DNA of 64,000 nt from an uncultured Chloroflexia bacterium. Its GTDB lineage: Bacteria > Chloroflexota > Anaerolineae > Promineifilales > UBA4811. The stretch covers positions 440,426 through 504,425 of the forward strand of contig CAVPPE010000003.1 of assembly GCA_963707345.1 (NCBI GenBank). The letters run 5' to 3'. Made by a program: the position numbers and the translations under genes. The notes beneath the pieces are model-generated. The model saw only the letters and a program-made list of their open reading frames with translations. It did not search any database and was not told the DNA's origin. Shown one piece after another: positions 27,270 through 62,997 of this stretch; position 1 is the first letter of the stretch, and each line of letters opens with the position of its first letter.

Positions 27270-29420
27270 TCACATTGTCACCCGCCGCATGCGCATACCG
27301 TTGAGGATTACGGCGACGGATGCGCCGACATCGGCGACAATGGCCAACCAGAGCGTTGCCAGCCCGGCCGCCGCCAGCGCAAACACAATCGCTTTGACCA
27401 CCAGCGCAAAGACAATGTTGGCGCGGATGGTCTGCCGGGTTTTCCGCCCCAGCCAGATCACAAATGGGAGTTGGGTCAGATCGTCGCCCATCAGCACCAC
27501 ATCGGCCGTTTCCATGGCCTGGGCGGACCCCGCGCCGCCCATGGCTATCCCCACCTCGGCTTGAGCCAGCGCCGGAGCATCGTTGACCCCATCGCCGACC
27601 ATGGCGACCGGTCCAAACCTGTCCGCCAATTTTGCAATGGCAGCCATCTTGTGCTCCGGCAGCAGCTCCGCCAGCACCTGATCCAGCCCTAATTCCCGGC
27701 CGATGGCTTGCGCGACCACCTGGCTATCGCCGGTGAGCATGGCGGTGTGCAGTTGCTCCGCTTTTAGCTGGCTCACCACGGCGCAACTCTTGGGGCGCGG
27801 GGTGTCGGCTACAGCGAACAGCCCGCAAACCTGGTTGCCGTGTTGCACCAGCATCACTGTTTTGCCCTCCGCCGCCAACTCTTCAGCCCGACGGCAGATC
27901 TCGGGTTCGTGGGGAAAGTGCCGGTCAAAGTGGGCGTGGCTGCCCACGGTGACCGTGGTATTGTTGATCGTCCCTTCAATGCCCCGGCCGCCCAGCACGG
28001 TCACGTCGCCGGCCGGGGCCAGCGCCACCTGACGGCGCTCTGCCTCTGCCAGCAGCGCGCGGGCCAGCGGATGGGACGACTGGGCTTCCAGTGAAGCGGC
28101 GTGGCGCAAGCCGCAATTCTCCGGGCACTCTCCGCAGGTGCACACGTCCAGGATGTCGGTGGCGACCGGCCTGCCGGCCGTGAGGGTGCCGGTCTTGTCA
28201 AATGCAAACACCCGCACCCTGCCGAGCGCATCCAGATAGCGCCCGCCCTTGATGAGCACGCCGCGGGAGGCGGCGTTGGTCATGGCGCTGACCACGCTGA
28301 CTGGAGTGCTAATGACCAGTGCACAGGGGCAGGCGATCACCAGCATTTGCAGTGCCCGCATCAGCCAACCCTGCGGGCCCCAGAATGGTTGCCCAAAGAG
28401 GAGTGGGGGCAGGGCGGCAACCAGCACGGCCGCCACAGCGACGGCCGGGGTGTACACACGGGCAAAGCGGTCGACGAAGCGTTGCACCGGCGCGTGGCGC
28501 GACCGGGCCTGCTGGACCAGCGCCACCATCCGGTTGAGCGTATTGTCGGCCGCCAAGTGAGTGACTCGGACTTGCAGCGCGCCGCTGCCATTGACCGTGC
28601 CGGCAAAGACCTGGTCGCTTGGCTCCTTTTCCACCGGCATGCTCTCCCCGGTGATGGGCGACTGGTCCACGGTGCTCCGGCCGGAGAGCACCACGCCATC
28701 CACGCTCACCCGGTCGCCCGGCCGGACCAGCACGTGATCTCCTACGGCCAACAATTCCACCGCAAGCTCCTGCAAACCCCCGTCGGGCAGCAACTTGTGG
28801 GCCATGGCTGGGGCCAGGTCCAGCAATGACGCCAGCGCGCCGCGCGCCCGATCGGCCGCATACCCCTCCAGCGCTTCTCCCAATGCAAAGAGGACCACCA
28901 CCACGGCCGCTTCGCCCCATTCGCCAATCACGGTCGCGCCGGTGACGGCGATAACCATCAGCGTGTTGATCCCCAGTGTGCGGCCACGCAACTCCCGCCA
29001 CGCTTGCTGCGCCACGGGAATCCCACCGACTGCAATGACGGCCGCAAATGTGCCTCTGGCGACGGCCGGGAGGCGAGCCAGGGACAGCACGAATCCCACC
29101 AAGGCCAGCAGCGCAGCGCCGGCGGTGAGGCCGGTGGCGGGAGAGGAAAAGAGGAATCGCAGAAAGCCCAATACCGGCCGGGCCTCTAACTGTCGGTGTT
29201 GCACCAGTCGGTGCCCGGTGGCGCTGACGGCGGCGCGGATCTGCTCGATCTCCGGCCGGCGGACACCAAAGGAGACGGTCAGCGTGCCGGCCGCCAGGTC
29301 CACCTGGCTATTGGCGACGCCTTCGATTTTGGCAACGGTCGCACGGACCTGCTCAGCGCAGTCCGCTCAAGTGAGCCCGGCTATGGTGTAGGTCTGCGTA
29401 TTGAGTTCTGTCTCAGTCAA
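27270..29420 (-). CDS. zntA: P1B-2 heavy-metal (Zn/Cd/Pb) P-type ATPase; N-terminal HMA domain with in-frame TGA (probable selenocysteine at codon 18)
   Basis: TGES, CPC, DKTGT, GDGVND, M7 Lys and M8 ADVG; upstream in-frame TTG with AGGAG RBS gives YTIAGLT-(TGA 29369-29367)-ADCAEQV. Confidence 0.85.
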
Positions 29421-29464
29421 ATCGGTGCTCCTGGTTCATCTCATCTGATCGCGTTTATGGCCCG

Positions 29465-29496
29465 ATTGTACACCTTCAAGTCGAGTTGAAGGTCAA
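29465..29496 (-). promoter_or_regulatory. MerR-type promoter/operator for the ATPase
   Basis: TTGACC-20 bp-TACAAT with dyad ACCTTCAA-N6-TTGAAGGT (29472-29493). Confidence 0.88.
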
Positions 29497-30245
29497 GGGT
29501 TGGGAGCTGACTCTTTCTCCAGGGCCAGAAAGAGTTGGGCAAAAAGAAAGGCATTGTCCCCATGGGCGATCAGCAGAGAGCCTTCAGGGTGGGATGCAAT
29601 CTGCGGTGCAGGATGGACCTGGCACTGGGACTCTAGTCCGGCCAACTCTTCCAGTGCGGCTCGGACCATCGGTTCCTGGCTTACAACCAGAATGTGATAG
29701 CTGGTTCCCGCCTGCCAGATGTGAACGTGACAACCGTGGAGCGGCTCCAACAGGCTCTGCGCCTCGGCCGAGCCCAGGCTACACCCGGTGCGTTGGACGA
29801 GCCATTCCAGAACCGTGTCCGCGTGGCCGGTGGACGTCGGGTCGGCACACACCTGGTTGAGCAGGCGCTCATAAAGCGATTCGGCCGCCTGGTTTGTCTG
29901 TCGCTCGCTCAGTTCCAGCAGCAGGTGCTCCAATTCGTGCCGCTGGACCATCAGCTCGGTCAACTGGCGTTCCAGTTCCAGGAACCGGTTTTCGGCCAGT
30001 GCGACGACCTCGGCCGTGCATGGGCCCTGCAGCAGCGCCTTGATATCGCCCAGCGAAAAACCTAGCCGCTGGGCCTGCTGGATAAAGCGCAGCGCCTGTT
30101 CCGCTTGTGGGTGAAAGAGCCGGTAGCCGGCCGCGCTCCGGCCGGCAGGGGCCAGCAATCCTTGCTCCTCGTAATAGCGGAGCGCGGATGTCCGCAGGCC
30201 GACCCGTTTGGCTAGCTGCCCGATGGTCAGCAAGGCGGAGGTCAC
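29493..30245 (-). CDS. MerR family transcriptional regulator with long Cys/His-containing C-terminal domain
   Basis: LTIGQLAKRVGLRTSALRYYEEQGLL...GYRLF...AQRLGFSLGDIK. Confidence 0.9.
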   Translation of the reverse strand: MTSALLTIGQLAKRVGLRTSALRYYEEQGLLAPAGRSAAGYRLFHPQAEQALRFIQQAQRLGFSLGDIKALLQGPCTAEVVALAENRFLELERQLTELMVQRHELEHLLLELSERQTNQAAESLYERLLNQVCADPTSTGHADTVLEWLVQRTGCSLGSAEAQSLLEPLHGCHVHIWQAGTSYHILVVSQEPMVRAALEELAGLESQCQVHPAPQIASHPEGSLLIAHGDNAFLFAQLFLALEKESAPNP

Positions 30246-30263: not shown

Positions 30264-30686
30264 CTAAATGAACAGGGTGATGGAAGAATCTCGCGCCTCT
30301 TTGATGTACATGCCCACCGCGCCGTATTCGTCAATCCATTCCTGGCGCAGCGCCCCTTTGCTGATGCCCATGATCTCCATGGTCATTTCGCAGGCAATGA
30401 CCTTGCCGCCCAACTCCTTAAAGTCATTCATCAACCGTTCCAGGGTGGCGACGTTGGCCTTTTTCATGCGCTGCTCGATCATCCATTTGCCCAGGCCAAG
30501 CATGTGCATCTTGGACAGCGGGCCTTTTGTGATGCCGCCTTTTTGCAGCCGTTGGAGTCCCCAAAAGGTAAAGTAGATGGACGCTTCCATCCCCATGGCC
30601 AGCGCTCCGTTGCCGATGATGAGCGCGCTGTACACTTTGTCCATGTCCCCGCTATGCAAGACGATTGTGGTTCGTTCGGTCTTCAT
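30264..30686 (-). CDS. DsrE/DrsH-like (DsrE2/YrkE type) sulfur carrier
   Basis: SGDMDK...IYFTFWGL...IACEMTM. Confidence 0.88.
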   Translation of the reverse strand: MKTERTTIVLHSGDMDKVYSALIIGNGALAMGMEASIYFTFWGLQRLQKGGITKGPLSKMHMLGLGKWMIEQRMKKANVATLERLMNDFKELGGKVIACEMTMEIMGISKGALRQEWIDEYGAVGMYIKEARDSSITLFI

Positions 30687-30753
30687 GTTCTCCTCCGGTG
30701 AGCGACGAACGACGGATGCCCGCCCTTTGTCGTACGTCCTTCGTCTTCCGTCC

Positions 30754-30975
30754 CTATCGTTGGATTTGGATAACCCAGTCGGTGTCGGTTCCTTCAACGC
30801 TGAGCAGTTCCAACTCCAGCGCCTCAGCCGCCATCGGGATCTCTACTTTAGATGCAGGGTGGGTCCCCACTACCTTGATTACGTCACCCGGTGCGGCCTT
30901 GCGCACCGCTTTGCGTGTCTCTACCAGCGGAACGGGGCAGGTCTCCCCACGTACATCAACTAGAATCTCGGTCAT
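30754..30975 (-). CDS. TusA/SirA family sulfur carrier
   Basis: VDVRGETCPVP motif; AAGGAG RBS. Confidence 0.92.
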   Translation of the reverse strand: MTEILVDVRGETCPVPLVETRKAVRKAAPGDVIKVVGTHPASKVEIPMAAEALELELLSVEGTDTDWVIQIQR

Positions 30976-31033: not shown

Positions 31034-31699
31034 TCACCTTATCATTGGTAACGGGGGAAGTGCTTCTTTGTCAAATTGAACGATGACCTCGGTTACATCC
31101 CAGAGGTGTGCGATTTTTTCCTCTATTTCCTCGCGAATGTTGGCTGCAAACTGGTGAGTGGGGGGCAGGACTATTTCCACCCGCACCCGGCCGTCCTCGA
31201 CCTCGACCTCTTTCACCAGCTTGGTTCGCACCAGGTCCAGGCCCACCATCGGGTTCATGACTCGCTTGAGTCGTTTATAGACGACCTCGGTTGTGGTGGG
31301 GGTGCGCTCTTTGACCAAACCATGCTTTTCTTCGTAATTTTCGATAGCCGCCCGCAGCGAGTCGATGGCCAGCACCGAACAATGGACCTTGATGGATGGC
31401 AACCCGCCCAACGCGTCTGAAATGTCCTGCCAGGTCATGTTCTTGGCTTCGTCCAGGGTTTTGCCCTTGGCCATTTCGGTGATGATGGAGGCGGTGGCAA
31501 TGTTGGATGCGCAGCCATACGATTCAAAAGTGGCCTGAGTGATGGTGTGGGTCTCTGAATCGACCTTGAGATAAACGGCTACCATATCACCGCAGGCCGG
31601 GCTTCCCTCGACTGCTTTGGCGTCGGGGTCCTCAATCCGGCCGACGTTGCGCGGATTGCGGAAATGTTCCATCACGATGTCAGAATAGGGGATTGGCAT
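31034..31699 (-). CDS. IscU/NifU-N scaffold fused to a degenerate DUF59-like domain
   Basis: EHFRNPRNVG, PACGD, YGCAS, KVHCS; C-terminus LKRVMNPMVGLDLV...VRVEI. Confidence 0.85.
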   Translation of the reverse strand: MPIPYSDIVMEHFRNPRNVGRIEDPDAKAVEGSPACGDMVAVYLKVDSETHTITQATFESYGCASNIATASIITEMAKGKTLDEAKNMTWQDISDALGGLPSIKVHCSVLAIDSLRAAIENYEEKHGLVKERTPTTTEVVYKRLKRVMNPMVGLDLVRTKLVKEVEVEDGRVRVEIVLPPTHQFAANIREEIEEKIAHLWDVTEVIVQFDKEALPPLPMIR

Positions 31700-31700
31700 A

Positions 31701-32876
31701 TTACTCCTCGCTTGGGTCTTTGCCCAGTGGGCTGATGGCTCGCAGTCTCTCAATCACCTCGGTGATAGCGCCGGCCACGGCGTCCACGTCCTCCGGCCGG
31801 TTGAAACGGCCAAAGGTAAAGCGCACCGAGCCATGTGCCCGCTCGTGGTTGCCGCCGATACCCAGCATCACGTGGCTGGCCTCCAGCGAGCGACTGAAGC
31901 ATGCCGAGCCAGTGCTGACGGCAAAGCCACGCATGTCCAGATGCAATAGGATCGATTCGCCCTCCACAAAGCGGAAAGAGACGTTGGCGTTGTGCGGCAG
32001 CCGATGGATGGGGTGTCCGTTGAGAGTGGAATGGGGGATCCGCAGCAGTTGCTCGATCAGGCGGTCACGCATGGATTGCAGCCGGCCGGTCTCCTCCGGC
32101 GTCACCAGTTCAATTGCCTTGGCAAAGCCAACGGCGGCCGGGATGTTTTCGGCACCTCCGCGCAGGTTAAACTCCTGAAATCCGCCATCCATCCATTTTG
32201 CCAGCGGGGTTCCCTGGCGCACGTACAGGCCGCCGACCCCCTTTGGTCCGTGAACCCGGCTGGGGGTAATGGAGATCAGATCGATCGGCGTCTCCTGCAC
32301 GTTGATCGGGATGCGGGGGTAGGAGTGGGTGGCGTCGGTGTGGAACAGCACGCCGTTTTCCTTGCAGATAGCGCCAATGGCCTGGATGTCCTGCAGCGTG
32401 CCGATCTCCTGGTTGGCCGCTTGTACCGTGACCAGGATGGTCTGCGGGGTCAATGCGCTGCGCAGATGGTCCAGGTTCACCCGGCCGGTTGGGTCCACCG
32501 GCAGGAGTGTGACCGAAAACCCCTGTCTTTCCAAAGCCCGCACGCTGTACAGCACCGCAAAATCCTCGACGCTGGTGGTGATGAGGTGCTGCCCCTTCTT
32601 CCTACCCAACGCCATCGCCACCCCTTTGATGGCCAGGTTGCTGGCCTCGGTGCTGCCGGAGGTAAAGATGACCTCCTCCGGCGCAGCGTTCACCGAGCCG
32701 GCAATGCTGGCGCGGGCAGCGTCCAGCGCGTCCTTGGCGTCCACGCCGGGAGAGTAGCCGAATTGGGATGTGGCGACCGCGTACGTCTCAAAAAAGTAGG
32801 GGGTCATTGCCTCCAGCACCCGCTCGTCCAGGCGGGTGGCGGCCGCGTTGTCCAGATAGACTGTTTTTCCAAGCAT
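31701..32876 (-). CDS. IscS-like class V aminotransferase fold protein lacking the PLP lysine
   Basis: YLDNAA, FTSGSTEASN and STGSACFS retained; SxHK site reads TPSR. Confidence 0.85.
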   Translation of the reverse strand: MLGKTVYLDNAAATRLDERVLEAMTPYFFETYAVATSQFGYSPGVDAKDALDAARASIAGSVNAAPEEVIFTSGSTEASNLAIKGVAMALGRKKGQHLITTSVEDFAVLYSVRALERQGFSVTLLPVDPTGRVNLDHLRSALTPQTILVTVQAANQEIGTLQDIQAIGAICKENGVLFHTDATHSYPRIPINVQETPIDLISITPSRVHGPKGVGGLYVRQGTPLAKWMDGGFQEFNLRGGAENIPAAVGFAKAIELVTPEETGRLQSMRDRLIEQLLRIPHSTLNGHPIHRLPHNANVSFRFVEGESILLHLDMRGFAVSTGSACFSRSLEASHVMLGIGGNHERAHGSVRFTFGRFNRPEDVDAVAGAITEVIERLRAISPLGKDPSEE

Positions 32877-32952
32877 CAATCGTTTATCCCTTTGACCATC
32901 TTTGCATCTGCGCAACTGGTGGGCTCGGCCGGAGCGGTTTCATGTGCCCAAG

Positions 32953-43632: not shown

Positions 43633-44301
43633 CTACTCGCCAACCCGGGCCATCTCGATGGCTTGCCGGATGGACGAGACGGCAAAGATTAGGAAGAGCA
43701 GCGCAGCAATGGCACCAATGATCAGGTCGTACACCGCAACTGTCCCAAACCCCAAGGTTACGTTGATCTGGCGGCCGAAAAACATGATGGTGTTGATGAT
43801 AATCAAAATGACCCGAACCTCGGTTGGCCCAAACTTGCCGTAGGAAATCTGAAATACGCCATCCACGTACGTGCGGATGTAGACCAGCACGGACAACAAC
43901 AGGTAGCCGATCAACGCCAGGCAGGCCACCTCGAACTTGACAAAGGGGGTCAAACCCAGACCCAGGACCACCAGCACCTCGGCAAACGCGTCCACGATGT
44001 GGTCTACAAAAAAGCCATACTTGGGGCGTTCGATTTTACGATAGCGGGCCAACGTGCCGTCCAGGCTGTCCCCAAACCAATTGATGACAAAACCCAGGCT
44101 CGCCAGCCAGAGGAAAGCCAGGTTGACGTTACTGAGCAGATAGCTGGCAAAGATAATGACCGCGCCAGCGATGCCGATGCCGGTCAGGATGTCGGGGTTG
44201 ACCCAGGGGGGCATGTGGGCCGCCAGCCACCGGAGCGCCGGCCGCTCCAATGGCCCTAGCAAGATGTCGTTTACGCGTTTGTGGGGCTTGACGTTCGCCA
44301 T
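43633..44301 (-). CDS. CDP-alcohol phosphatidyltransferase family protein
   Basis: DSLDGTLAR...GFFVDHIVD motif; AAGGAG RBS before ATG 44301. Confidence 0.9.
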   Translation of the reverse strand: MANVKPHKRVNDILLGPLERPALRWLAAHMPPWVNPDILTGIGIAGAVIIFASYLLSNVNLAFLWLASLGFVINWFGDSLDGTLARYRKIERPKYGFFVDHIVDAFAEVLVVLGLGLTPFVKFEVACLALIGYLLLSVLVYIRTYVDGVFQISYGKFGPTEVRVILIIINTIMFFGRQINVTLGFGTVAVYDLIIGAIAALLFLIFAVSSIRQAIEMARVGE

Positions 44302-44364
44302 CAAATCTCTCCTTGTTGGGACCGAATCTGGTCTGCCAAGTATACTCGCCCCGGTGCCAGGCGC

Positions 44365-44408
44365 AAAACGGCCGCCCCGATTCGCGTGCTCAGAACGGCC
44401 GTTTTTTC
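44365..44408. terminator. Probable terminator
   Basis: AAAACGGCCG...CGGCCGTTTTTT. Confidence 0.5.
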
Positions 44409-44414
44409 GGCTGG

Positions 44415-45188
44415 TTATTGTTGCTGCTCGCCAGCGGCCAGCCGTGCGATGAAAGCGGCCGTCTGCTGCCAGACCAGTTCCCGCTCGCCGTCGCACAAGA
44501 TGTTGTGCCCCGAGTCGTGCAGCGTGACCAACTCTTTGTCCGACGAGCCAATTTGCTGGATGACGTGTGGCCCGCTCTTGTAGCGGATCGAGTTGTCCCC
44601 AGTGCTCATCACCACCAGCGCTGGAGCGGTGATGGAAGGCAGCAGCTTGCGCACGCGCTTGTTGAACAGGTTGACCTGATGGGCCGCCCGGCCGGGGATG
44701 GCGTCGTAGCACCATATCCGGCCGCCGGCCGCGGGATCGACCAGATCGGCATCCAGGTCCTTGGTGCGGATGGTGAGAGGAATGATGGTAGCAATCCAGC
44801 TCAGGCTCATCAGCCGGTCGGCAAAAAAGATGGCCGGCGAGTAGAGGGCGATGCCATCGACGGGATGGGCGGCCGCCAGGTTGAGCGTCAGCAGAGATCC
44901 CAGCGAGAGGCCGGCGACAAAGACCTGCTTGCACCGGCCGGCCAGCTCCCGGTATGTCTGCTCCACGGCTGCTACCCACTCAGGCCAGGTGCGGCCGGCC
45001 AGATCCTCCACTGACGTCCCGTGTCCCGGCAGCAGTAGCCCGGAAACGGTGTGGTTCTGGGCTGCCAGAAACTCGCCCAGCGGCCGCATTTCGGTTGGCG
45101 CGCCGGTAAAGCCGTGAATCAGCAGGACCCCCACCGGGCCGCCGGCGAAAAAGAACGGACTTGGATCGAGCCAGGAATGTTGTGTCAT
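44415..45188 (-). CDS. Carboxylesterase/monoacylglycerol lipase (YvaK/Est30-like)
   Basis: LLIHGFTG, LPGHGT, GLSLG, SGH. Confidence 0.88.
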   Translation of the reverse strand: MTQHSWLDPSPFFFAGGPVGVLLIHGFTGAPTEMRPLGEFLAAQNHTVSGLLLPGHGTSVEDLAGRTWPEWVAAVEQTYRELAGRCKQVFVAGLSLGSLLTLNLAAAHPVDGIALYSPAIFFADRLMSLSWIATIIPLTIRTKDLDADLVDPAAGGRIWCYDAIPGRAAHQVNLFNKRVRKLLPSITAPALVVMSTGDNSIRYKSGPHVIQQIGSSDKELVTLHDSGHNILCDGERELVWQQTAAFIARLAAGEQQQ

Positions 45189-45224
45189 TTTTTACCTATT
45201 TTGGGGCGCTCGGCTGAACGTCCC

Positions 45225-47885
45225 TTACAAAGCTTCCAATCTTTCCGCCAACGTAGCGCGCGTGGCTTGCAGTTCGGCCAGCTTGTCTTGCTCGCGTTGG
45301 ACCACCTCGGCCGGGGCGCGCTGGGCAAACGGACCGGCCAGCAGCCCTTCGCTGCGGGTGATCTGCTGATCGAGTTCGGCCAACTCCTTCCCCAGCCGGG
45401 CGCGTTCCTCGCCCAGGTCCACCATGCCAGCCAGCGGCAGGTAACAGATCACCTCGCCAAAGGCCAGCGTGATGGCCTTGTCCGGTGCCGTCATGGCGGG
45501 CGCAATGGTGAGCGTGTCAGCACTGAGACGCGCCAGCCGGACCAGCAGATCGCGTTGCTGTTCCAGCATGGCTGCCTGCCGGCCGCCAGCAATCAGCGCC
45601 GTAATCCACCTACCCGGCTCCACATTGCTCTCGGCGCGGGCGTTGCGGATGCTGCGGATGAGTTCCATCAGCAGGTTGAAATCGGCCTCGGCGTCCTCGT
45701 CGGGCTGCCCGGTCGTTTCCGGCCAGCGGGCGATGATGAGCGCCTCCGGCCAGCCACCGGCCGGTTCTAGCTCTGGTCGGCCGGCACACGCTTGCTTCAG
45801 GTTCTGCCAGATCTCCTCGGTCACAAATGGGATGAATGGGTGGAGCATGCGCAGGACTTGATCCAGCACCGTCACCAGGGTCTTGCCGGCCGCCAGCGCT
45901 GAACGATCCCTTTGGGGCAGGGGCAGTTTGCTGGCTTCAATGTACCAGTCCGCGTACTCGCTCCAGAAAAAGTCGTACAGTTGCCGGCCGGCCTCGCCGA
46001 ACTGGTAGCCGGCAAACAGGCGATTCACCGCGGCCGTCACCTTGTTGAGCCGGCTGGTTATCCAACGATCAGCCAACCCGTAGGCTGGATCGCCGCCAGC
46101 CGGCACCTGGTCTAGCGACCCGATGATGAACCGCGCCGCGTTCCACAGCTTGTTGGTGAAATTACGGCTGTTCTCCAGCCGGCCGGGGTTCAGATTCATG
46201 TCGTTTCCGGGCGTGCTGGAGGTCAGCAAGGCAAAGCGCAGCGCGTCGGTTCCGTACTGATCCATCAGTTCCAGCGGGTCCATCGCATTGCCCAGACTCT
46301 TGGATACCTTGCGGCCGTGCTCGTCACGGATTAGCCCGTGCAGGTAGACCGTGTGGAACGGGATCTTGTTGGTGAACAGCAGACTGTCCATAATCATCCG
46401 CGCCACCCAGAAAAAGAGGATGTCGTAGGCGGTCTCCATGACGTCGGTGGGGAAGAAGCGCCGCAGGTCGGGGGTGTCATCCGGCCAACCCAGGGTGCTA
46501 AAGGGCCACAGCGCCGAGCTGAACCAGGTGTCCAACACATCTTCCTCTTGCTTGATTTGACTGTTGCCACAATGAGCGCAGCGGTCCGGGTCGGTGCGGG
46601 GCACAGTCATCCGGCCGCATTGATCGCAGTACCACACCGGGATGCGGTGGCCCCACCAGAGCTGGCGGCTGATGCACCAGTCACGGATATTTTCCAGCCA
46701 GTTGTAGTACACTTTGGTGAACCGGTCGGGCACGATGGTGATCCGGCCGGCGCGCACTGCCTCCAGCCCCAGTTCGGCCAGCGGTTTCATTTTGACGAAC
46801 CATTGGGTGGAGATCATCGGTTCCACGATCTCGCCGCCGCGCTGGCTGCGGGGGATGGACATCGGGTAGTCCTCTTCGCGGATGGTAAGCCCGACCGTCT
46901 TCATATCTTCCCACAGTGCCTCGCGGCACTCGAAGCGGTCCAGCCCCGCATAGGGTCCGGCGTTGGCGTTCATAGTGGCGTCCGGGCCGAGCACGTTGAG
47001 GATCTGCAGCCCGTGGCGCTGGCCGATCTCAAAGTCGTGCGGGTCGTGCCCCGGCGTGATCTTGAGCGCCCCGGTGCCAAACTCCATGTCCACGTAGGTG
47101 TCCTGGATGATGGGGATTGGCCGGTTGAGGATCGGCACCAGGCAGGTTTCGCCGTGCAGGTGGCGGTAGCGCTCGTCGGCGGGGTGGATGGCCACGGCCG
47201 TGTCGCCCAGGATGGTCTCCGGCCGGGTAGTGGCCACCGGGATGGACTCGCCCTTGCGGCCGGCGATGGGATACTTGAAGTAATAGAGCTTGCCCATCTC
47301 GTCCGAGTATTCCACTTCCAGGTCGCTGACGGCCGTGCGCAGCCCAGGCGACCAGTTGATGAGGTACTCGCCACGGTAAATGAGCCCCATCTCGTACAGG
47401 CGTACAAAGGCCTCCCGCACTGCCCGGCTCAAGCCATCGTCCAGCGTAAAGCGCTCGCGATCCCAGTCGCAGGATGCGCCCAGCCGCTCGTGCTGGCGGG
47501 TGATCCGGCTGCCGTACTCTTCCTTCCATTGCCAGGTGCGGCGCAGGAACGCCTCCCGGCCGATCGCCTCCCGGCTGGTGCCCTCTTTTTGCAGAGCCTG
47601 CTCCACCACCAGTTGGGTGGCAATCCCGGCGTGGTCGGAGCCGGGCACCCAGAGGGCGGCAAAGCCCCGCATCCGGTGGTAGCGGATCATCAGGTCCTCC
47701 ACCGAAGCGGTAATGGCGTGGCCGGTGTGCAGCGCGCCGGTCACGTTGGGCGGCGGCATGGAGATGACAAACGGCTTGGCAGCCGGCCCGGCCGCTTCCG
47801 GCTTGAACCAGCCATTCTCCCGCCACCAGTTGTAAAGCCGTTCCTCGGTGGCTTCAAAGTCGTAGGTTTTCGGCATCTCGGTCAT
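45225..47885 (-). CDS. valS: Valine--tRNA ligase
   Basis: PPPNVTGALHTGH, DWCISRQLWWGH, KVSKS, C-terminal coiled coil. Confidence 0.98.
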   Translation of the reverse strand: MTEMPKTYDFEATEERLYNWWRENGWFKPEAAGPAAKPFVISMPPPNVTGALHTGHAITASVEDLMIRYHRMRGFAALWVPGSDHAGIATQLVVEQALQKEGTSREAIGREAFLRRTWQWKEEYGSRITRQHERLGASCDWDRERFTLDDGLSRAVREAFVRLYEMGLIYRGEYLINWSPGLRTAVSDLEVEYSDEMGKLYYFKYPIAGRKGESIPVATTRPETILGDTAVAIHPADERYRHLHGETCLVPILNRPIPIIQDTYVDMEFGTGALKITPGHDPHDFEIGQRHGLQILNVLGPDATMNANAGPYAGLDRFECREALWEDMKTVGLTIREEDYPMSIPRSQRGGEIVEPMISTQWFVKMKPLAELGLEAVRAGRITIVPDRFTKVYYNWLENIRDWCISRQLWWGHRIPVWYCDQCGRMTVPRTDPDRCAHCGNSQIKQEEDVLDTWFSSALWPFSTLGWPDDTPDLRRFFPTDVMETAYDILFFWVARMIMDSLLFTNKIPFHTVYLHGLIRDEHGRKVSKSLGNAMDPLELMDQYGTDALRFALLTSSTPGNDMNLNPGRLENSRNFTNKLWNAARFIIGSLDQVPAGGDPAYGLADRWITSRLNKVTAAVNRLFAGYQFGEAGRQLYDFFWSEYADWYIEASKLPLPQRDRSALAAGKTLVTVLDQVLRMLHPFIPFVTEEIWQNLKQACAGRPELEPAGGWPEALIIARWPETTGQPDEDAEADFNLLMELIRSIRNARAESNVEPGRWITALIAGGRQAAMLEQQRDLLVRLARLSADTLTIAPAMTAPDKAITLAFGEVICYLPLAGMVDLGEERARLGKELAELDQQITRSEGLLAGPFAQRAPAEVVQREQDKLAELQATRATLAERLEAL

Positions 47886-48010
47886 AGTTGTCTTCTTTCC
47901 TCTCCGAATTGGTGGTCATTGCTTTTCTCTGTCTGGTGTCGGCCGGCGACGACCGGCCGGCAACGTTGGACATCAACTCCTGAAACCCCGTCTGCAACAG
48001 TGACAGGCAC
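47882..48010 (-). CDS. Putative Val-rich small ORF coupled to valS (42 aa)
   Basis: AGGAGG 8 nt before GTG; MPVTVADGVSGVDVQRCRPVV...; stop overlaps the valS start (ATGA). Confidence 0.35.
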   Translation of the reverse strand: MPVTVADGVSGVDVQRCRPVVAGRHQTEKSNDHQFGEERRQL

Positions 48011-48028
48011 GGTCATCACCTCCTTCTT

Positions 48029-48391
48029 CTAGCACGTGATGTGAAACAACCCAATCACTTTGCCGCGCAGTTCGTTCCAGGCCTCGGCCGCGGCCGGCGT
48101 TGGCTGGATCTCGACTTGCACGCCCTTCTGCCGGAAGAACCCGGCCGCCTCGTCAGACAACTCGACCAGGCCAATCTGGCCACTGCCGATCAAGAGCCGT
48201 TCCGCACCTTTTTCATATACGTACTCCGCCTCCGGCAGCGAGACGATGTGCGAGGTGCCGTACAATTCCTTGGAAAGCTTTTTCTTGCGCTTGCGCACCC
48301 TGCCGTCCAACCCAATCAGGATATCGTGAGCGTATTCCTCACCTTCCACGGTGATGGAGCCAAAGCTGGTTTTGCTGATCTCTGGTCTCAT
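48029..48391 (-). CDS. Mth938-like (DUF498) protein
   Basis: FGSITVEG, GTSH, LLIGSGQ, PTPAA, GLFHITC terminus. Confidence 0.88.
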   Translation of the reverse strand: MRPEISKTSFGSITVEGEEYAHDILIGLDGRVRKRKKKLSKELYGTSHIVSLPEAEYVYEKGAERLLIGSGQIGLVELSDEAAGFFRQKGVQVEIQPTPAAAEAWNELRGKVIGLFHITC

Positions 48392-48445
48392 CTCAATAAC
48401 CTTCTCACACGGAGTTTGATCAACTGCCTGGTTGAGTGGTCGCCA

Positions 48446-48700
48446 CAAAACAAAAAACCCTGGCGTCACAAGGACGAAAGGGTTCCTTCCGTGGTACCAC
48501 CTTGTTTCGGCCGGCACACAGCCGCACCGCACTCGGGGAGACGTTAACGGGCCTCAAGCGGCCGTGCTTGTCCAGGCTGTCCGGTTCAGCACAGCAACTC
48601 CCAAGCGACCTTCAACAGGGGGCGCTGTAAGGGCTTGCAGCCGGTGACCCTTTTCTCTGCTGCAGGGCCTGACCTGTTTACTCCTCTTGATCGTCGTCTT
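48446..48700 (-). ncRNA. T-box riboswitch, valine specifier
   Basis: AGTA, AGAGA and GCTG stem I motifs; specifier GTC (48609-48607); T-box AAGGTGGTACCACGG (48503-48489); terminator with T-tract. Confidence 0.92.
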
Positions 48701-48719
48701 TGCTTGTTAAATTGTCAGG

Positions 48720-48792
48720 CGTCCTTGGCGCGATTCGAACGCGCGGCCTTTGCCTCCGCAGGGCAACGCTCTATCCACTGAGCTACAAGGAC
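48720..48792 (-). tRNA. tRNA-Arg(GCG)
   Basis: Cloverleaf; anticodon arm TTGCC-CTGCGGA-GGCAA; T-loop GTTCGAATC. Confidence 0.92.
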
Positions 48793-48795
48793 GCG

Positions 48796-48885
48796 TGGCG
48801 GGGAGGTAGGGATTCGAACCCTAGGTGGCTTTTACACCACAACCACTTAGCAGGCGGCCCCGATCGTCCACTCCGGCACCTCCCC
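48796..48885 (-). tRNA. tRNA-Ser(GCT)
   Basis: Anticodon loop CT-GCT-AA, long variable arm, encoded CCA. Confidence 0.95.
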
Positions 48886-48894
48886 AAGTATGTT

Positions 48895-49022
48895 GCAACT
48901 GCTCAACTCAAGGTCCTGGGTAGGGTGAGATGGTGGGTGTGCGGGCGTCGGACATCCCGCGTACAGCGGGGCGAAGCGCCCGCACACCCACCGAAAAATC
49001 TTCACGCTGCCTGAGCAGTTAC
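48895..49022 (-). repeat. Dispersed TIR/hairpin repeat, copy D (128 bp, 24-nt insertion in the hairpin)
   Basis: Minus strand GTAACTGCTCAGGCAGCGTGAAGATTTTT...TTGAGCAGTTGC; lies between two tRNA-Ser genes. Confidence 0.88.
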
Positions 49023-49034
49023 CAATTGTTAAGG

Positions 49035-49117
49035 CGGAGGGAGAGGGATTCGAACCCCCGAAGCTTGCGCTTGCCGGTTTTCAAGACCGGTGCCATAGTC
49101 CACTCGGCCATCCCTCC
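49035..49117 (-). tRNA. tRNA-Ser(TGA)
   Basis: Anticodon arm CCGGT-CTTGAAA-ACCGG, long variable arm. Confidence 0.95.
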
Positions 49118-49148
49118 GGGAAGGGGGAACCTCTCCCCAAGCGCGAAA

Positions 49149-49177
49149 AGTATAACACAGCCAAATAGGGGCGTCAA
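49149..49177 (-). promoter_or_regulatory. Sigma70 promoter of the tRNA cluster
   Basis: TTGACG-17 bp-TATACT with TG extension. Confidence 0.8.
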
Positions 49178-49247
49178 TGTCGCGCCGTGACCCCCAAAAC
49201 GCACCTGGCATTGTCCGATCTCGTGTGCCGAGTTCAAGCCCAACTGT

Positions 49248-49276
49248 TTGACGGGGTATAGGCGTGACAGTATAAT
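49248..49276 (+). promoter_or_regulatory. Sigma70 promoter of maf (probably leaderless)
   Basis: TTGACG-17 bp-TATAAT; ATG 7 nt downstream. Confidence 0.8.
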
Positions 49277-49283
49277 TCAACCA

Positions 49284-49970
49284 ATGATTCAGTCAGCAAG
49301 CATTGAGCGGCCGCTGGTGTTGGCCTCTGCGTCGCCCCGCCGCCGGGAGTTGATGGGATTGCTTGGGATGGCCTTTAGCGCCCGGGTTGCCCAGGTGGAG
49401 GAGCAGATCCATTCCCAGGAGATGGCACTGGAGGCGGCGCAACGTTTTGCGCGACAGAAAGCGGCGGCCGTAGCACAGAAAATGAATCCGGCGAGTTATG
49501 CCTTGGTGATTGGCGCGGACACGATTGTTGCCCTGGATGGCGAGCCACTGGGCAAGCCGCGCGACGCGGCCGAGGCAGAGGTGATGCTGCGCAAACTCCG
49601 CGGCCGGAAGCACCAGGTCTTTACTGCTTTGTCGCTGGTCTCTGTCCCGACTGGGCAGAGCTGGCACCATTTGGCAGAGACCGATGTCCCGATGCGCGAC
49701 TATTCCGATGAAGAGATCTATTTGTACGTCCGCAGTGGAGACCCGTTTGACAAGGCGGGCGCATATGCCATTCAGAATCACGATTTCCGGCCGGTGACCA
49801 ACATGCAAGGTTGTTACGCCAACGTTATGGGGCTGCCGTTATGCCACCTCACCGTCCTGTTGCGTCAGCAGGGGGTTGAGCCGCTGGTGGACGTACCGCA
49901 GGCTTGCCAGGAGCGGCTGGCCTATCGTTGCCCAGTCTATGCCCGTGTGCTGGCAGGGGAACCGGCATGA
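49284..49970 (+). CDS. maf: Maf family nucleoside triphosphate pyrophosphatase
   Basis: LVLASASPRRREL, GADTIV, DKAGAYAIQ, NVMGLP. Confidence 0.95.
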   Translation: MIQSASIERPLVLASASPRRRELMGLLGMAFSARVAQVEEQIHSQEMALEAAQRFARQKAAAVAQKMNPASYALVIGADTIVALDGEPLGKPRDAAEAEVMLRKLRGRKHQVFTALSLVSVPTGQSWHHLAETDVPMRDYSDEEIYLYVRSGDPFDKAGAYAIQNHDFRPVTNMQGCYANVMGLPLCHLTVLLRQQGVEPLVDVPQACQERLAYRCPVYARVLAGEPA

Positions 49971-52240
49971 AGCGCTTGGGGCTGATCTTGCTGGCCAGCT
50001 GGCTGGTGTTGAGCAGTTGTGTGCGCACGCCTCCGCCGACCAGCGGCCCGCAGCCGACGGGGACATCACCCCTGGTGGCTACACCAGAGCCGGGGCTCAC
50101 GCTGGCCCCATCCGCCACGCCTACCCAGTATGCTCCAGGCGCGGACGGGGTTGCCACTGCCTATTTACGTGCGTGGAAGAACGGTGACTTTGCGGGAATG
50201 TACAGCCTCCTTTCGCGCACCAGCCAATCCGTGCTGGACCAGCATACGTTTGCCGAGCGATATCAGGATGCGCAGTCGGCCGCCACGGTGGTGCAGGTAG
50301 ATACCCGGCCGATCGCCATTTTGCAGGACGGTGAAAAGGCCGAGGTCTCGTTTCGCCTGACCTGGAAGACTGCGCTGTTGGGCGACATCGAGCGCGAGAT
50401 GACGATGCCGCTGGTATACGAGGGCGGCCGGTGGGCCGTCAGTTGGTCGGAGGCCTTGATTCTGCCCGAATTGGGTGGCGGCAACCGGCTGCAACTGGAG
50501 TATCATATCCCGGTGCGGGCCAACATTTACGACCGCAGCGAGGACAACGACGTTGGACTGGCGGTGGAGGGCACGGCCGTTACCCTGGGCGTGGTGCCCG
50601 CCAGTTTCCCGGAAGGTGAAGAAGAGACGCTGCTGGGCCTGTTGAGCCAGATCATGGGGCAGCCGGCCGAGGAGATTCAGGCGCGCTACATTGGCTCGGA
50701 GCCCACCTGGTATATCCCGCTGGGCGACGTTCCCCTGGATCGTGTTTCTCCACACCTGGATGCTTTGCGAACGTTCATTGATACCGGGGCGCTGCAACTG
50801 CGCGAGCGCAAAACTCGAATCTACCGCGATGGAGGGGTCGCGCCGCACGTGATTGGCTACACCAGCGTCGTCCCGGCCGAACAACTGGACGCCTGGCAAG
50901 CCCAAGGGTACCGTGGCGACGAGAGGGTAGGATTGGCGGGTCTGGAAGCGTGGGGCGAACCGTACCTGGGCGGCGCCCGTGGGGGCAGCCTGCATCTCGT
51001 CTCGCCGACTGGGGACTATTTGCGCACGATTGCGGAAGTACCGGCCCGTTCCAACCGCAGCATCTACACTACGCTGGACAAGGAATTCCAGATGGCGGTG
51101 GAACAAGCGCTGGCAGATGCCATCCAGAGCCACCCAGACGGTCACGCCGGGGCGGTGGTGGTGATGGACGTCAACAGCGGGCAAATTCTGGCTTTGGCCA
51201 GCTACCCGGATTTTGACCCCAATCTGTTTGATCCCATCAATCCCGACTCGGCCGGTGGCCTGCGGCTCGTGCTCAATCACCCCGGCCGGCCGCTGGTCAA
51301 CCGGGCAGCAATGGGCATCTACCCAGCCGCCTCTGTTTTCAAGATCGTCACCCTGTCGGCCGCGCTCATCTCTGGCGCCTATTTGCCGGACACGCGCTAC
51401 ACCTGCACCGGGACCTGGGATGGGCTTGGCCCCAACTATGTCAAAAAGGACTGGCTCGAGGGCGGGCACGGCAACATCACGTTGCGGCAGGCGCTGACCT
51501 ATTCCTGCGACCCCTACTTTTACCAGGTTGGCCTTACGCTCGATCAGGTCGATTCGTTCATCATTCCCGAGACTGCCCGAGCGTTTGGGTTGGGGGTGTT
51601 AACCGGGATTCAGGGCCTGGCGGAAGAGGACGGGATTATCCCGGATCCAGAGTGGAAGCTGGCGACTTTTGGGGAGGGGTGGGGCCGCGGCGACAGCGTC
51701 AACATGGCGATAGGGCAGGGATTTGTGGCTGTGACTCCGCTGCAAGTGGCCACTATGATGGTCGCCGTTGCCAATGGTGGCACGCTGTACCGGCCGCAAA
51801 TCGTCCAGCGCATTGGCGAAGGCGGCGGTGCGCCGGAGGAGGCAATTGGCTCCGAAGTGATCGGCCAGCTTCCCATCACGGCCGATCAAGTTGCTCTCAT
51901 CCAGGAGAGCCTGTTGGCGGTGACTACCCAGAAGGGGGGCACGGCCGAGCACCGTTTCCGCAATATGCCCATCCCCGTGGCTGGCAAAACCGGCACGGCC
52001 GAAGTGCCACCCATTCTCCGCGATGACGGCACCCTGAACGACGAGCCGACCGCCTGGTTTGCCGCTTACGCCCCGGCCGCAGCTACTCCGGAGCTGGAGA
52101 ATGTGCCGGATCTGCCAGAGATAGCCATTGTGGCGATAGTGGAGAACGCTGGCGAAGGGTCGGCCGTGGCCGCACCGATCGTTCGGCGCATCGTCGAGTT
52201 GTATTACGGCATTCAACCTCTTACCCCGTACCCGTGGTAG
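49967..52240 (+). CDS. Class B penicillin-binding protein (PBP2-like, NTF2/MecA_N N-terminus, likely lipoprotein)
   Basis: LSSC lipobox; SVFK, SCD and KTGT motifs. Confidence 0.88.
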   Translation: MKRLGLILLASWLVLSSCVRTPPPTSGPQPTGTSPLVATPEPGLTLAPSATPTQYAPGADGVATAYLRAWKNGDFAGMYSLLSRTSQSVLDQHTFAERYQDAQSAATVVQVDTRPIAILQDGEKAEVSFRLTWKTALLGDIEREMTMPLVYEGGRWAVSWSEALILPELGGGNRLQLEYHIPVRANIYDRSEDNDVGLAVEGTAVTLGVVPASFPEGEEETLLGLLSQIMGQPAEEIQARYIGSEPTWYIPLGDVPLDRVSPHLDALRTFIDTGALQLRERKTRIYRDGGVAPHVIGYTSVVPAEQLDAWQAQGYRGDERVGLAGLEAWGEPYLGGARGGSLHLVSPTGDYLRTIAEVPARSNRSIYTTLDKEFQMAVEQALADAIQSHPDGHAGAVVVMDVNSGQILALASYPDFDPNLFDPINPDSAGGLRLVLNHPGRPLVNRAAMGIYPAASVFKIVTLSAALISGAYLPDTRYTCTGTWDGLGPNYVKKDWLEGGHGNITLRQALTYSCDPYFYQVGLTLDQVDSFIIPETARAFGLGVLTGIQGLAEEDGIIPDPEWKLATFGEGWGRGDSVNMAIGQGFVAVTPLQVATMMVAVANGGTLYRPQIVQRIGEGGGAPEEAIGSEVIGQLPITADQVALIQESLLAVTTQKGGTAEHRFRNMPIPVAGKTGTAEVPPILRDDGTLNDEPTAWFAAYAPAAATPELENVPDLPEIAIVAIVENAGEGSAVAAPIVRRIVELYYGIQPLTPYPW

Positions 52241-52244
52241 TCAC

Positions 52245-53237
52245 TTGATGGTGGAACGCACAGGCCTGGTGGTCAAAGCGCAGAGCGGCTTTTTTACCGT
52301 GCAGACGGCCGCTGGCCCGGTGGTGTGTCGCATCCCCGGCCGGCTGAAAGAAGAACACCAGCGACAGGTTGAATTGGACCCCGACTTTGGCCGTAGCGAC
52401 ATCGTTGCTGTAGGGGATCGGGTGGAGATCACGGATTTTGGGGGTGGCAGCGGCGAGATTGAAGCGGTGCAAGAGCGCGAGCGGGCGCTCACCCGGCGGG
52501 CCCCATTGCCCGGCGGCCGGGGTGCTAACGCCACCGAACACGAGTACAAACAGATCATTATTGCCAACCCGGACCAGGCGGTCTTTGTCTTTTCGGTCAT
52601 GGACCCGGAGCCCAGCTTGCGAATGCTGGACCGCTTCTTGGTGATGGCGGAAGATGCCGGGATCCCGGCCGCCATCTGTGTGAACAAAATCGACCTGGCG
52701 CTGGAGGCCGCGCAGCCCGATTACCCATCGGAGCTCTTTGGCCTGTACGCTCAAATTGGCTATCCGGTAGTCTATGCCAGCGCCCGGGATCGGAAGGGCA
52801 TTGACCAGTTGCAAAACCTGCTTGCAGGCAAGATCTCTGTGCTGGCGGGCCCCTCTGGGGTGGGAAAATCCAGCCTGCTCAACGCGATACATCCCGGTTT
52901 GGGTTTGGCAATCCAGGAGGTCAGCCAGGCCACAGGCAAGGGGCGCCACACGACTCGGGTCCGCGAGTTGATCCCGTTGGAGGGGGGCGGCTACGTGGCG
53001 GACACCCCCGGCTTGCGCACGATGGCGCTGTGGGATATCGAGCCCGATGAACTGGACGCCTATTTCCGCGAGATTGCTCCGCTGGTGACCGATTGCGCCT
53101 TTAGTGATTGCAGCCATACCCACGAACCGGGCTGCGCCGTGCTGGAAGCCGTGGACGATGGGCGCATCCATCCGGACCGATACGAGAGCTATTTGCGGCT
53201 GCGGGACGAAGCGGCCGAGCGGCCATGGTGGTATTAG
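52245..53237 (+). CDS. rsgA: Ribosome small subunit-dependent GTPase A
   Basis: NKID, GPSGVGKSS, GRHTT, DTPG, CxFxDCxHxxEPGC. Confidence 0.96.
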   Translation: MMVERTGLVVKAQSGFFTVQTAAGPVVCRIPGRLKEEHQRQVELDPDFGRSDIVAVGDRVEITDFGGGSGEIEAVQERERALTRRAPLPGGRGANATEHEYKQIIIANPDQAVFVFSVMDPEPSLRMLDRFLVMAEDAGIPAAICVNKIDLALEAAQPDYPSELFGLYAQIGYPVVYASARDRKGIDQLQNLLAGKISVLAGPSGVGKSSLLNAIHPGLGLAIQEVSQATGKGRHTTRVRELIPLEGGGYVADTPGLRTMALWDIEPDELDAYFREIAPLVTDCAFSDCSHTHEPGCAVLEAVDDGRIHPDRYESYLRLRDEAAERPWWY

Positions 53238-53298
53238 AAAACTAGTTCGAAAAAAACCCGGTTTTCTTATTGCCTTCTTCTGTAAAGTCGACTAAAAT

Positions 53299-54251: not shown

Positions 54252-54443
54252 TTATTCCCAGCCGATAATCCAAATGCACGCCCCGGCAACCAGCACGGTC
54301 GCGATGACCAGTGCGGCCCACTGATGGGGCAGCAGGCCCACGTCGCGAGCCTCCCAGACAAGGATAGCCACCATGCCCAGGGCCAGCACGGCCCAGGCGG
54401 ACAGTTGGGGGTGGTTCTTGACCCAGTTGGTAATTCTTGACAT
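54252..54443 (-). CDS. Small two-TM membrane protein
   Basis: 63 aa, two hydrophobic helices, GGGAG RBS. Confidence 0.7.
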   Translation of the reverse strand: MSRITNWVKNHPQLSAWAVLALGMVAILVWEARDVGLLPHQWAALVIATVLVAGACIWIIGWE

Positions 54444-54473
54444 CGAATTCTCCCAATGCTCCGCAAACGGCCG

Positions 54474-57488: not shown

Positions 57489-57622
57489 CACATGCCTGCT
57501 CTTTGCCAAGTGGACGGAATTATACCACAGGCGCTCAGTCTAGTTCTCCCCCCAAAAACATTACTGCCTGAGCGGTTACAGGGCAGTTACCATTTTTTCT
57601 GATTTGGACTATAATCTGCCCC

Positions 57623-58033: not shown

Positions 58034-59407
58034 ACACGGAGCTGTTTCGCCAGTTACCCAGCGTGGAGCAACTGCTGCAAACTCCGGCCGTTGCTGGATT
58101 GGCCGCTACTTACGGCCGCCCGGCCGTGCTGGAGGCGTTGCGCGCCACGCTGGACGGTGCGCGGGAGGCGATCCGCGCCGGCCGGGGATTATCCATCGCC
58201 GACGGGGAGTTGCTGGCGCAGGCAGAAGACTTGCTGGTGAAACTGATGGCCCCCACGTTACGCCCGGTGATCAATGCCACCGGAGTAATTGTTCACACCA
58301 ACCTCGGCCGATCGCCGCTCAGCACGGCCGCCCGCCGGGCGGTTGCCGCCGCAGCCGCACAGTACAATACGCTGGAATACGATCTGGCTGAAGGGGCGCG
58401 GGGCTCCCGCTCGATCCACGCCCAGAATCTACTGACGCGGCTGGTGGGAGCGGATGATGCCACGGTGGTCAACAACAATGCTGCGGCCGTGCTGCTCACC
58501 CTCACCGCATTGGCGCAGGGCAGGGAGGTGATTATCTCCCGCGGCCAACTGGTGGAGATTGGCGGCAGCTTTCGCATCCCGGAGGTGATGGCCCAATCCG
58601 GAGCCAGGCTGGTGGAGGTGGGGGCTACCAATCGCACCCACCTGCGCGATTACCGCGACGCCATCACCGAGAACACGGCCGCCATCATGGTGGCGCATCG
58701 TTCCAATTTTATGATTGTGGGCTTTACGGCCGAGCCCGAACTGGCCGAACTGGGTGCGCTGGCAAACGAGCATGGTCTGTTGCTGTTGCACGATCTGGGC
58801 AGCGGCACGCTGTTGGACACCGCGCCCTATGGGCTGGCGCACGAGCCGACGGTGCAGGAGAGTTCTGGCGGCCGGGGTGGACGTGGCCTGCTTTAGCGGG
58901 GACAAGCTACTGGGCGGCCCGCAGGCCGGGTTGATCGTCGGCCGGGAGGAGCTGCTGGCGCGGATCAAAAAGCACCCGCTGGCCCGCGCGGTCCGGCCGG
59001 ACAAGCTGTGTTACGCCGGTCTGACGGCTACCCTGTTGCATTATCTCAAAGATGAAGCCGTTCGCGAGATTCCCATCTGGCGGATGATGGCGATGCCGGC
59101 CGATCAGTTGAAACGGACCGCGCGGCGCTGGGCTGGCCGGTTGCGACGAGCCGGCTTGGCGGCGGCAGCGGTCCCTGGCGAGTCGACGGTGGGCGGGGGG
59201 AGTTTGCCAGGTCAGACTTTGCCGACCTGGCTGGTGGCGCTGGAGCATCCCAGCCCGGCCGGGCTGGCGGCCCTGTTACGGGCGGCCGACCGGCCGGTGA
59301 TCGGCCGGATTGAAAGCGACCGGTTCCTGCTGGACCCCCGCACCGTGCTGGCGGAACAGGAAAACGACCTATTGGAAACTGTCGTGTCGATGGCGCTGGC
59401 CGCCTAG
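58030..59407 (+). pseudogene. selA: L-seryl-tRNA(Sec) selenium transferase with a +1 frameshift at 58863-58864 (real or sequencing error)
   Basis: VINATGVIVHTNLGR, VNNNAAA, SRGQLVEIGGSFR, then FSGDKLLGGPQAG in another frame. Confidence 0.92.
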
Positions 59408-59443
59408 ACGTGCGTACTTTTGATCACGACTGTGTTTTGTGGA

Positions 59444-59546: not shown

Positions 59547-59564
59547 TTTGTGGATAGGAAAATC

Positions 59565-62985: not shown

Positions 62986-62997
62986 TTCCCCGATTCC

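Follow-up and report, generated by a model that had tools for sequence, protein, structure and literature searches.

A heavy-metal ATPase gene with an in-frame TGA codon

The window analysed here is a stretch of 64,000 nucleotides from an uncultured Chloroflexia bacterium (assembly GCA_963707345.1; genome G000 below). On its minus strand, where the features of the pump locus described below lie, it carries a gene for a P1B-type heavy-metal ATPase (27270..29420; 716 codons plus stop, TTG start) whose codon 18 is an in-frame TGA (29367..29369), preceded by a MerR-type promoter and a gene for a MerR-family regulator. Sequence comparisons make it likely that this gene encodes a real selenocysteine (Sec)-containing, MerR-controlled Zn/Cd/Pb-type P1B ATPase with Sec at residue 18, within its HMA domain. 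The TTG at 29420 stands 7 nt behind a ribosome-binding site read from the sequence (AGGAG, 29428..29432), and because it is immediately preceded by an in-frame stop (29438-29436), this TTG is the sole canonical start in the open frame. With the TGA read through, the frame has 717 positions and ends at a TGA stop (27272-27270), the part other than codon 18 and its upstream stretch being intact for 698 codons. An earlier reading of the same DNA from its letters and open reading frames (the sequence-only reading) had proposed a TTG start preceded by a ribosome-binding site and in frame with the ATPase, and both the AGGAG and the open frame bear this out.

Pfam identifies in the read-through protein an HMA domain (PF00403, residues 10-70, 29211..29393; 46 bits, E 6e-12) followed by E1-E2_ATPase and Hydrolase, and the P-type core motifs DKTGT (residues 408-412), TGES (257-260) and GDGxNDxP (609-616) are all present. 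Alignment to the solved ZntA (4umv, E 5e-123) pairs the TGA codon with the first cysteine of GMDCAAC, as the sequence-only reading had placed it, the codon read as Sec18 replacing the first Cys of the HMA motif G-L-T-U-A-D-C. Also aligned to ZntA are the DKTGT phosphorylation motif (28185..28199), the transmembrane CPC motif of the ion site (residues 364-366, 28323..28331), and Lys676 (VVKAIV) and Asp697 (ADVGAS) in the last two membrane helices (27318..27401), which match the Lys and Asp of ZntA. Lysine and aspartate in the last two helices together with a membrane CPC are the signature of P1B-2 (Zn/Cd/Pb) pumps. Among the NCBIfam models, the protein exceeds the cut-offs of TIGR01525 (heavy-metal P1B; 600 bits) and TIGR01512 (Cd/Zn subfamily; 501 bits against a cut-off of 313.5), and scores 404 bits with the copper model TIGR01511 (cut-off 397). 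The ZntA equivalog cut-offs are not reached (NF008262, 583 versus 1005 bits; NF033775, 515 versus 1240 bits), indicating a pump of the ZntA/CadA kind rather than ZntA itself. The TIGR01512 score and the aligned CPC, Lys and Asp uphold the Zn/Cd type given in the sequence-only reading, and assignment to the Zn/Cd/Pb-type (P1B-2-like) metal-exporting ATPases is supported, with the transported metal as a prediction.

Conservation of the TGA codon and of the protein around it

We searched whole genomes with the read-through protein, stops being read through. An orthologue was found in five of the seven species genomes that make up the family, and four of these five, representing four genera, have TGA at exactly the same codon: G000, G002 (70% identity), G006 (68%) and G003 (54%). 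The fifth, G005, belongs to the same genus as G006 and has TGT at this codon, forming a Sec/Cys pair within one genus (by locus, TGA in L022, L024 and L025, the last being that of G003, and TGT in L023). The pump has no match in G001 (92% complete) or G004 (69% complete). Every orthologue examined outside the TGA-bearing four has a cysteine codon (TGC or TGT) at the Sec site, including six from the sister family, and a class-wide draw of 400 genomes gave 25 with an N-terminal match, none of them with a stop at the site. No in-frame TGA occurs there in 105 loci scanned, made up of the 25 class loci and of 80 metagenome loci among those listed, the latter mostly found through the generic MVGDGVND pattern; among the metagenome matches listed there is no close relative with an N-terminus, L186 (67% identity) being a C-terminal piece. 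Two 'TGA-type' motif matches from the metagenomes (L085 and L087) proved spurious, since they lie in other frames of GC-rich DNA, and L226 from a scan of species genomes was dropped likewise; G015:C33:50545-52680 (41% identity, one TGA and one TAA) was left out of the comparison. The Cys/TGA pairs in relatives that the sequence-only reading had named as its check are therefore present, with TGA in G002, G003 and G006 and Cys in G005 and the more distant orthologues. TGA at one and the same codon in four genera cannot result from a nonsense mutation, from a change peculiar to one strain or from faulty sequencing.

The G003 pump (L025) has five further in-frame TGAs at residues 349-395. Because selA of G003 also lies in three pieces, we suspect indels, and these extra TGAs are probably faults of the assembly.

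Among the family orthologues, the stretch of nine codons leading up to the TGA keeps the pattern x-T-F/Y-x-I/V-x-G-L-T, with synonymous third-base differences (GGG/GGC, CTC/CTT/CTG, ACT/ACC), and every orthologue has a start codon of its own, located 7-13 codons before this conserved strand. Such substitutions are those of a translated N-terminus and not of a leader followed by a stop. The contrary explanation is that the TGA is an ordinary stop throughout the family, closing a 17-codon upstream peptide, with the ATPase starting beyond it and the HMA-like strand of that peptide being residual. The shortness of the upstream part would suit this, as would the hairpin described below, which is weak and lacks covariation. 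We regard it as very improbable, given that the residues before the TGA are conserved as protein with synonymous changes across four genera, that the Cys form of G005 reads straight through the same alignment, that translation begun beyond the TGA would yield a shortened HMA fold devoid of its metal-binding motif, and that the stop falls exactly on a metal-binding Cys codon.

A SECIS-like hairpin downstream of the TGA

Bacterial selenocysteine insertion sequence (SECIS) elements are stem-loops just downstream of the UGA, whose apical loop lies 16-37 nt from it and has a G near its beginning. A SECIS-like hairpin is located at +18..+38 from the U of the UGA (29332..29352), and an RNAalifold consensus of the four Sec sequences gives it a conserved core stem of +21..+24 against +30..+33 (29349-29337; pairs G21-C33, G22-C32, U23-A31 and C24-G30), with the apical loop CGUGC at +25..+29 (29345-29341). 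The hairpin at +21..+33 is present in all four Sec sequences, each with a CGUGN loop. The codons (G/C)TC CGT, which form the 5' arm and the loop, are invariant in all five family sequences, and the eight Cys orthologues of other families listed in the alignment use CGA, CGG, CAG or CAA at the position of CGT. Putative SECIS elements follow other TGA codons of G000 (the genes are described below), with loop CGUGC at +30 in a thioredoxin gene, CGUGCU at +27 in a GrdB-like gene and GGUC at +31 in the HdrA gene. The invariant codons and the recurring loops favour a functional element.

Several observations limit the case for a SECIS function. The consensus stem has only 4 bp and shows no compensatory change; G006 breaks one pair, and another goes from U-A to U-G. 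An Rfam search of 29250-29450 with E up to 10 gave no family match. The Cys form of G005 folds in the same region too, and a competing hairpin at +4..+27, the alternative fold that the sequence-only reading had also noticed, is the minimum-energy fold in G000. Fold energies over +10..+46 range from -4.9 to -12.8 kcal/mol in the Sec forms and from -1.0 to -20.7 kcal/mol in the Cys orthologues, and because these ranges overlap, energy is evidence neither way. Longer outer helices occur in each Sec sequence; their registers differ, and we did not count them as covariation. The stem-loop GCAGGTC-CGTGC-GACCGTTGC that the sequence-only reading saw 14 nt after the TGA is thus real, while the SECIS role it suggested is only compatible with the data: the hairpin has the position and loop of a bacterial SECIS, on a 4-bp stem without compensatory change.

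Selenocysteine machinery and faults of the assembly

The G000 assembly (3.66 Mb in four contigs, 97.3% complete) contains a tRNA-Sec gene (selC; 69.5 bits), which ARAGORN classes as SeC (anticodon tca), and selB in a single 636-codon frame (335 bits, over the cut-off). The gene for selenocysteine synthase, selA, which the sequence-only reading had reported in the window, is there at 58045..59383 (+), although split over two frames with a break near 58862 (domain scores 375 and 184 bits); an undivided selA frame is found in nine of the 12 relatives that were searched. Of the other genes that reading had proposed to look for, selB and selC were found and selD was not.

The state of this machinery is the main point that speaks against a working Sec pump in G000. 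Besides the two reading frames of selA, neither a profile search nor tblastn located selD in the assembly. The best selD profile match reaches 95 bits (cut-off 125) and is the AIR-synthase-like paralogue that relatives carry besides SelD, the second match is HypE, and tblastn with the SelD of a relative gave nothing better than E 0.039. By contrast, 37 of the 41 related genomes, G030 (unpublished) being counted among them, have a SelD scoring above the cut-off, and all 38 of the matches over the cut-off carry their own TGA except for a C-terminal fragment in G032; the N-terminus of the family's SelD reads G-U-A-A-K. With selD not found and selA frame-broken, the machinery is not shown to be complete in G000. 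G002, which is 95% complete and has the same pump TGA, possesses selA, selB, selC and selD. In G001 and G005 selD adjoins an ABC-ATPase gene; a match to that gene with 50-53% identity lies at G000:C1:221572-222312 and has no selD next to it, the orthology of this neighbour being unsure. Most simply, the selD of G000 would be in DNA that was not assembled or not binned, a very recent loss of the gene being the less simple alternative.

Contigs of four metagenome runs were aligned to 44001-64000, where stretches without cover carry no meaning; the best-matching run contains 0.26 of the sequence words, no source run was found, and the runs give no information on habitat. An X1 contig that differs nowhere else over 571 bases carries one more G than the assembly in the G-run at 53993, and this additional base, placed behind 53993, fuses the open reading frames 53296-54063 and 53910-54251 into one. 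This restored frame indicates that the assembly has homopolymer indels that break genes, and gene calls on the G000 genome will contain false frameshifts from this source. Over 58694-58915 an X3 contig (221 letters, depth 3.7) has one base fewer and no other difference, which is what selA needs for a single frame, the exact position of the gap not being listed in that comparison. The frame break in selA is most likely a homopolymer assembly error, against which it must be said that the evidence is one contig of low depth (3.7) from another sample. Of the 32 contig pieces listed, 25 have no letter that differs from the assembly.

These comparisons also bear on the possibility of a base-call error, by which the true codon of G000 would be TGC or TGT and the organism would have the Cys form. 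The assembly does contain errors, and it counts against our interpretation that the contig comparison covered 44001-64000, away from the TGA, and that no source run was found. An error of this type is nevertheless extremely improbable, as those seen are homopolymer indels and not substitutions, 25 of the 32 pieces show no differing letter, and TGA stands at this codon in three further genomes.

Other genes with TGA at cysteine positions

A first, strict scan of the genome for TGA codons returned 16 sites, all of them ordinary gene junctions, and missed the ATPase. In a relaxed scan 197 of 31,958 TGA sites passed the coding filter and 19 of these had a Cys within four residues; eight of the 19 were taken to Pfam. 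At least eight further genes of G000 thus carry TGA where members of a recognised family have Cys, seven of the eight in a recognisable Cys-containing motif. They encode HdrA fused to FlpD (D-C-S-I-U), two DsbA-like proteins (U-S-Y-C and U-P-H-C), a thioredoxin (W-U-I-T-C), an AhpC/TSA protein (U-P-F-C), a GrdB-like protein with an in-frame TGA at a Cys position, a PCYCGC-motif protein (L197, G000:C2:557082-557561, minus strand; PF13798, E 2e-25; H-A-F-G-[TGA]-T-I-C) and a [NiFe] hydrogenase large subunit (L195, G000:C3:790323-791405, minus strand; PF00374, E 1e-126). The Pfam match spans the TGA in six of the eight, and the AhpC/TSA and hydrogenase frames end early. The relaxed scan missed the ATPase as well, its upstream coding score of -0.02 lying under the filter, which is a point against the Sec interpretation; it also means that the scan is insensitive and that the eight genes are a lower bound.

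In the hydrogenase the TGA occupies the second Cys of the N-terminal motif R-I-C-G-V-[TGA]-T-T-V-H. Known [NiFeSe] enzymes carry Sec in a C-terminal DPUxxC motif. Perhaps because of an indel, the L195 frame stops 267 codons past the TGA; a search of 40 relatives gave no orthologue at E <= 1e-60.

Intact selB and selC together with many TGA genes, most of them open around the TGA, are most simply explained by an organism that uses Sec. Alternatively, the trait could be decaying: the lineage once made a Sec-ATPase, selD has been lost, selA is broken, and UGA18 now terminates translation, leaving the pump dead or made without its HMA domain from an internal start. The absence of selD from the G000 assembly and the two frames of selA fit such a relic, as does the lack of a Sec-type formate dehydrogenase in G000, unlike G001, G002 and G005. 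We nonetheless judge this improbable, considering that selB and tRNA-Sec are intact, that at least eight other genes keep TGA at Cys positions (six with a Pfam match across it), that the ATPase frame is otherwise intact over its 698 codons, and that the assembly shows homopolymer indels (the G-run at 53993 in X1, the selA break in X3). An internal GTG at 29303 is also without a nearby Shine-Dalgarno sequence.

Promoter, regulator and neighbouring genes

The MerR-type promoter of the pump (29465..29496) consists of TTGACC (29496-29491), a spacer of 20 nt and TACAAT (29470-29465), with a 22-bp palindrome in the spacer (29472-29493). A sigma-70 scan with spacers of 16-18 nt returned nothing at the pump promoter, as is to be expected with an over-long spacer. 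Spacers of 19-20 nt typify MerR-family metal-responsive promoters. Together with the adjacent MerR gene, these elements agree with the correctly placed upstream MerR promoter described in the sequence-only reading. The G003 pump is preceded by nearly the same promoter element, and the versions in G005 and G006 are degenerate.

Adjoining the pump upstream, the MerR-family regulator gene (29493..30245; 250 amino acids; Pfam MerR_1, MerR and MerR-DNA-bind) ends with its stop codon inside the -35 box of the pump. The regulator has an N-terminal helix-turn-helix and a dimerisation helix, followed by a C-terminal extension of ~130 amino acids without a Pfam match, making it about twice the usual MerR length; the end of the extension is conserved in G003. 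It scores 75 bits with the CueR/ZntR models, under their cut-offs, and falls below those of MerR and CadR as well. Its cysteines are Cys76, Cys133, Cys154, Cys171 and Cys207, the last four in the C-terminal half.

Further upstream lie a DrsE_2/DsrE-like gene (30264-30797), a gene with NifU-like and FeS_assembly_P domains (31034-31753) and a class-V aminotransferase of the NifS/cysteine desulfurase type (31701-32915). In G002, G003, G005 and G006, too, the DrsE_2 gene precedes the pump; in G002 it follows a TusA-like CPxP gene, and no MerR gene separates it from the pump there. These neighbours may form a sulfur/selenium relay connected with the pump, or their arrangement may be no more than synteny at the family level.

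Proposed mechanism and significance

In the mechanism that we propose, the MerR-type regulator bound to the palindrome would activate the promoter when metal is present, and SelB with Sec-tRNA(Sec) would bind the hairpin 18-38 nt after the UGA and insert Sec. The Sec18 selenolate and the Cys21 thiolate, perhaps with Asp20, would then be the ligands of a soft divalent metal in the HMA domain, on the cytoplasmic side. The loaded domain would regulate or feed the membrane site formed by Cys364-Pro-Cys366, Lys676 and Asp697, from which the metal would be exported through the Asp408 phosphoenzyme cycle. By analogy with other Sec/Cys pairs, a Sec ligand should be fully ionised, softer and faster-exchanging compared with Cys, and we infer selenol-based metal capture in the pump.

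A more far-reaching proposal is that of selenium-tuned metal sensing, in which Sec18 would lend the regulatory HMA domain far greater affinity, or faster exchange, for soft metals such as Cd(II), Hg(II) or Pb(II) and synthesis of the pump would be selenium-dependent. A UGA at codon 18 of a MerR-induced gene implies that pump synthesis would depend on the selenium supply, and repeated switching between Sec and Cys (within one genus, and at least three changes over two phyla) would fit an ecological tuning of this kind if it is true; we put the proposal forward as speculative and, on present evidence, rather unlikely. To our knowledge, nearly all characterised selenoproteins are redox enzymes. 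Sec as a metal ligand in the regulatory domain of a transporter would be a different use of selenium, one that has only ever been predicted. In practical terms, gene callers will truncate the Sec pump.

Comparison with known systems

The best solved relative of the pump is ZntA (Shigella sonnei / E. coli; 4umv, 4umw), to which its single N-terminal HMA domain, CPC, DKTGT, Lys and Asp all align; ZntA differs in having Cys, not Sec, in GMDCAAC. With the ZntR/zntA, CueR/copA and MerR/mer promoters the locus has in common an adjacent MerR-family gene and an over-long, palindrome-filled spacer, whereas its regulator is co-directional with the pump, is 250 amino acids long, has its stop codon in the -35 box and carries an unmatched C-terminal extension.

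A 'cation-transporting ATPase, UxxC' selenoprotein family is already listed in the tables of two reviews (PMC9312934, 2022; PMC13188914, 2026). For this family a 2016 survey covering over 5,200 genomes gives 32 genes in 25 organisms (PMC5029168), an ocean metagenome survey one Sec against 882 Cys forms (PMC2398784), and a 2007 paper on the Olavius symbionts counts it among the known families; Zhang et al. (2006; PMC1794560) make no mention of an ATPase selenoprotein family. As the family is defined in the review tables, the pump belongs to it, being a TIGR01525/COG2217 ATPase with an N-terminal UxxC (U-A-D-C). It is thus an additional member of an already catalogued, experimentally untouched selenoprotein family. 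Given these counts and listings, along with six Bacillaceae genomes described below, UxxC cation ATPases are less rare than the sequence-only reading implied in calling them only rarely predicted. We saw no selenium-incorporation or metal-binding data in the literature for any Sec-ATPase, which weakens the case for the present one as well, and the 2026 review states that the roles of such transporters 'require further investigation'.

The catalogued UxxC ATPases and this pump have in common TIGR01525 and Sec at the first Cys, and both are known from sequence only; this pump differs in belonging to a Chloroflexota lineage and in its motif G-L-T-U-x-D-C, with Asp inside UxxC. The word 'Chloroflexi' is absent from the main text of PMC5029168, as are 'Chloroflexi' and 'Chloroflexota' from PMC13188914, and the organism lists may be in supplements. 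Among named records, the nearest ones bear the title Anaerolineales or Anaerolineae bacterium.

The scan of species genomes revealed TGA at the first HMA Cys in CadA-like ATPases of six Bacillaceae records (L208, L211, L212, L217, L219 and L224), which belong to named and partly cultured species of Bacillus, Neobacillus and Halalkalibacter. Like the present pump, to which they are ~41-43% identical, these are of the Cd/Zn P1B type, and the small hairpin at +21..+33 is found there too; they differ in the motif V-Y-R-V-Q-G-F-S/T-[TGA]-x-x-C and in a second hairpin at ~+37..+56. In a tree of 42 pumps, from which L104, L105, L106, L108 and L109 (distant, with long branches) and loci lacking a full N-terminus were left out, the five family sequences group together (93 SH-aLRT) in an Anaerolineae clade with G-L-T-C-x-D-C (100), and the Bacillaceae Sec forms are interleaved with Cys forms in a separate clade (100 SH-aLRT). 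The well-supported branches force at least three Sec/Cys changes (a smaller tree needs two), which with the separate clades indicates independent origins of Sec; on this phylogeny the Sec pump apparently arose independently in this Anaerolineales-like lineage. The locus is accordingly a well-supported case from a new lineage, and the natural Sec/Cys pair of G006 and G005, with its parallel in culturable Bacillaceae, makes the contribution of Sec to the HMA metal site testable.

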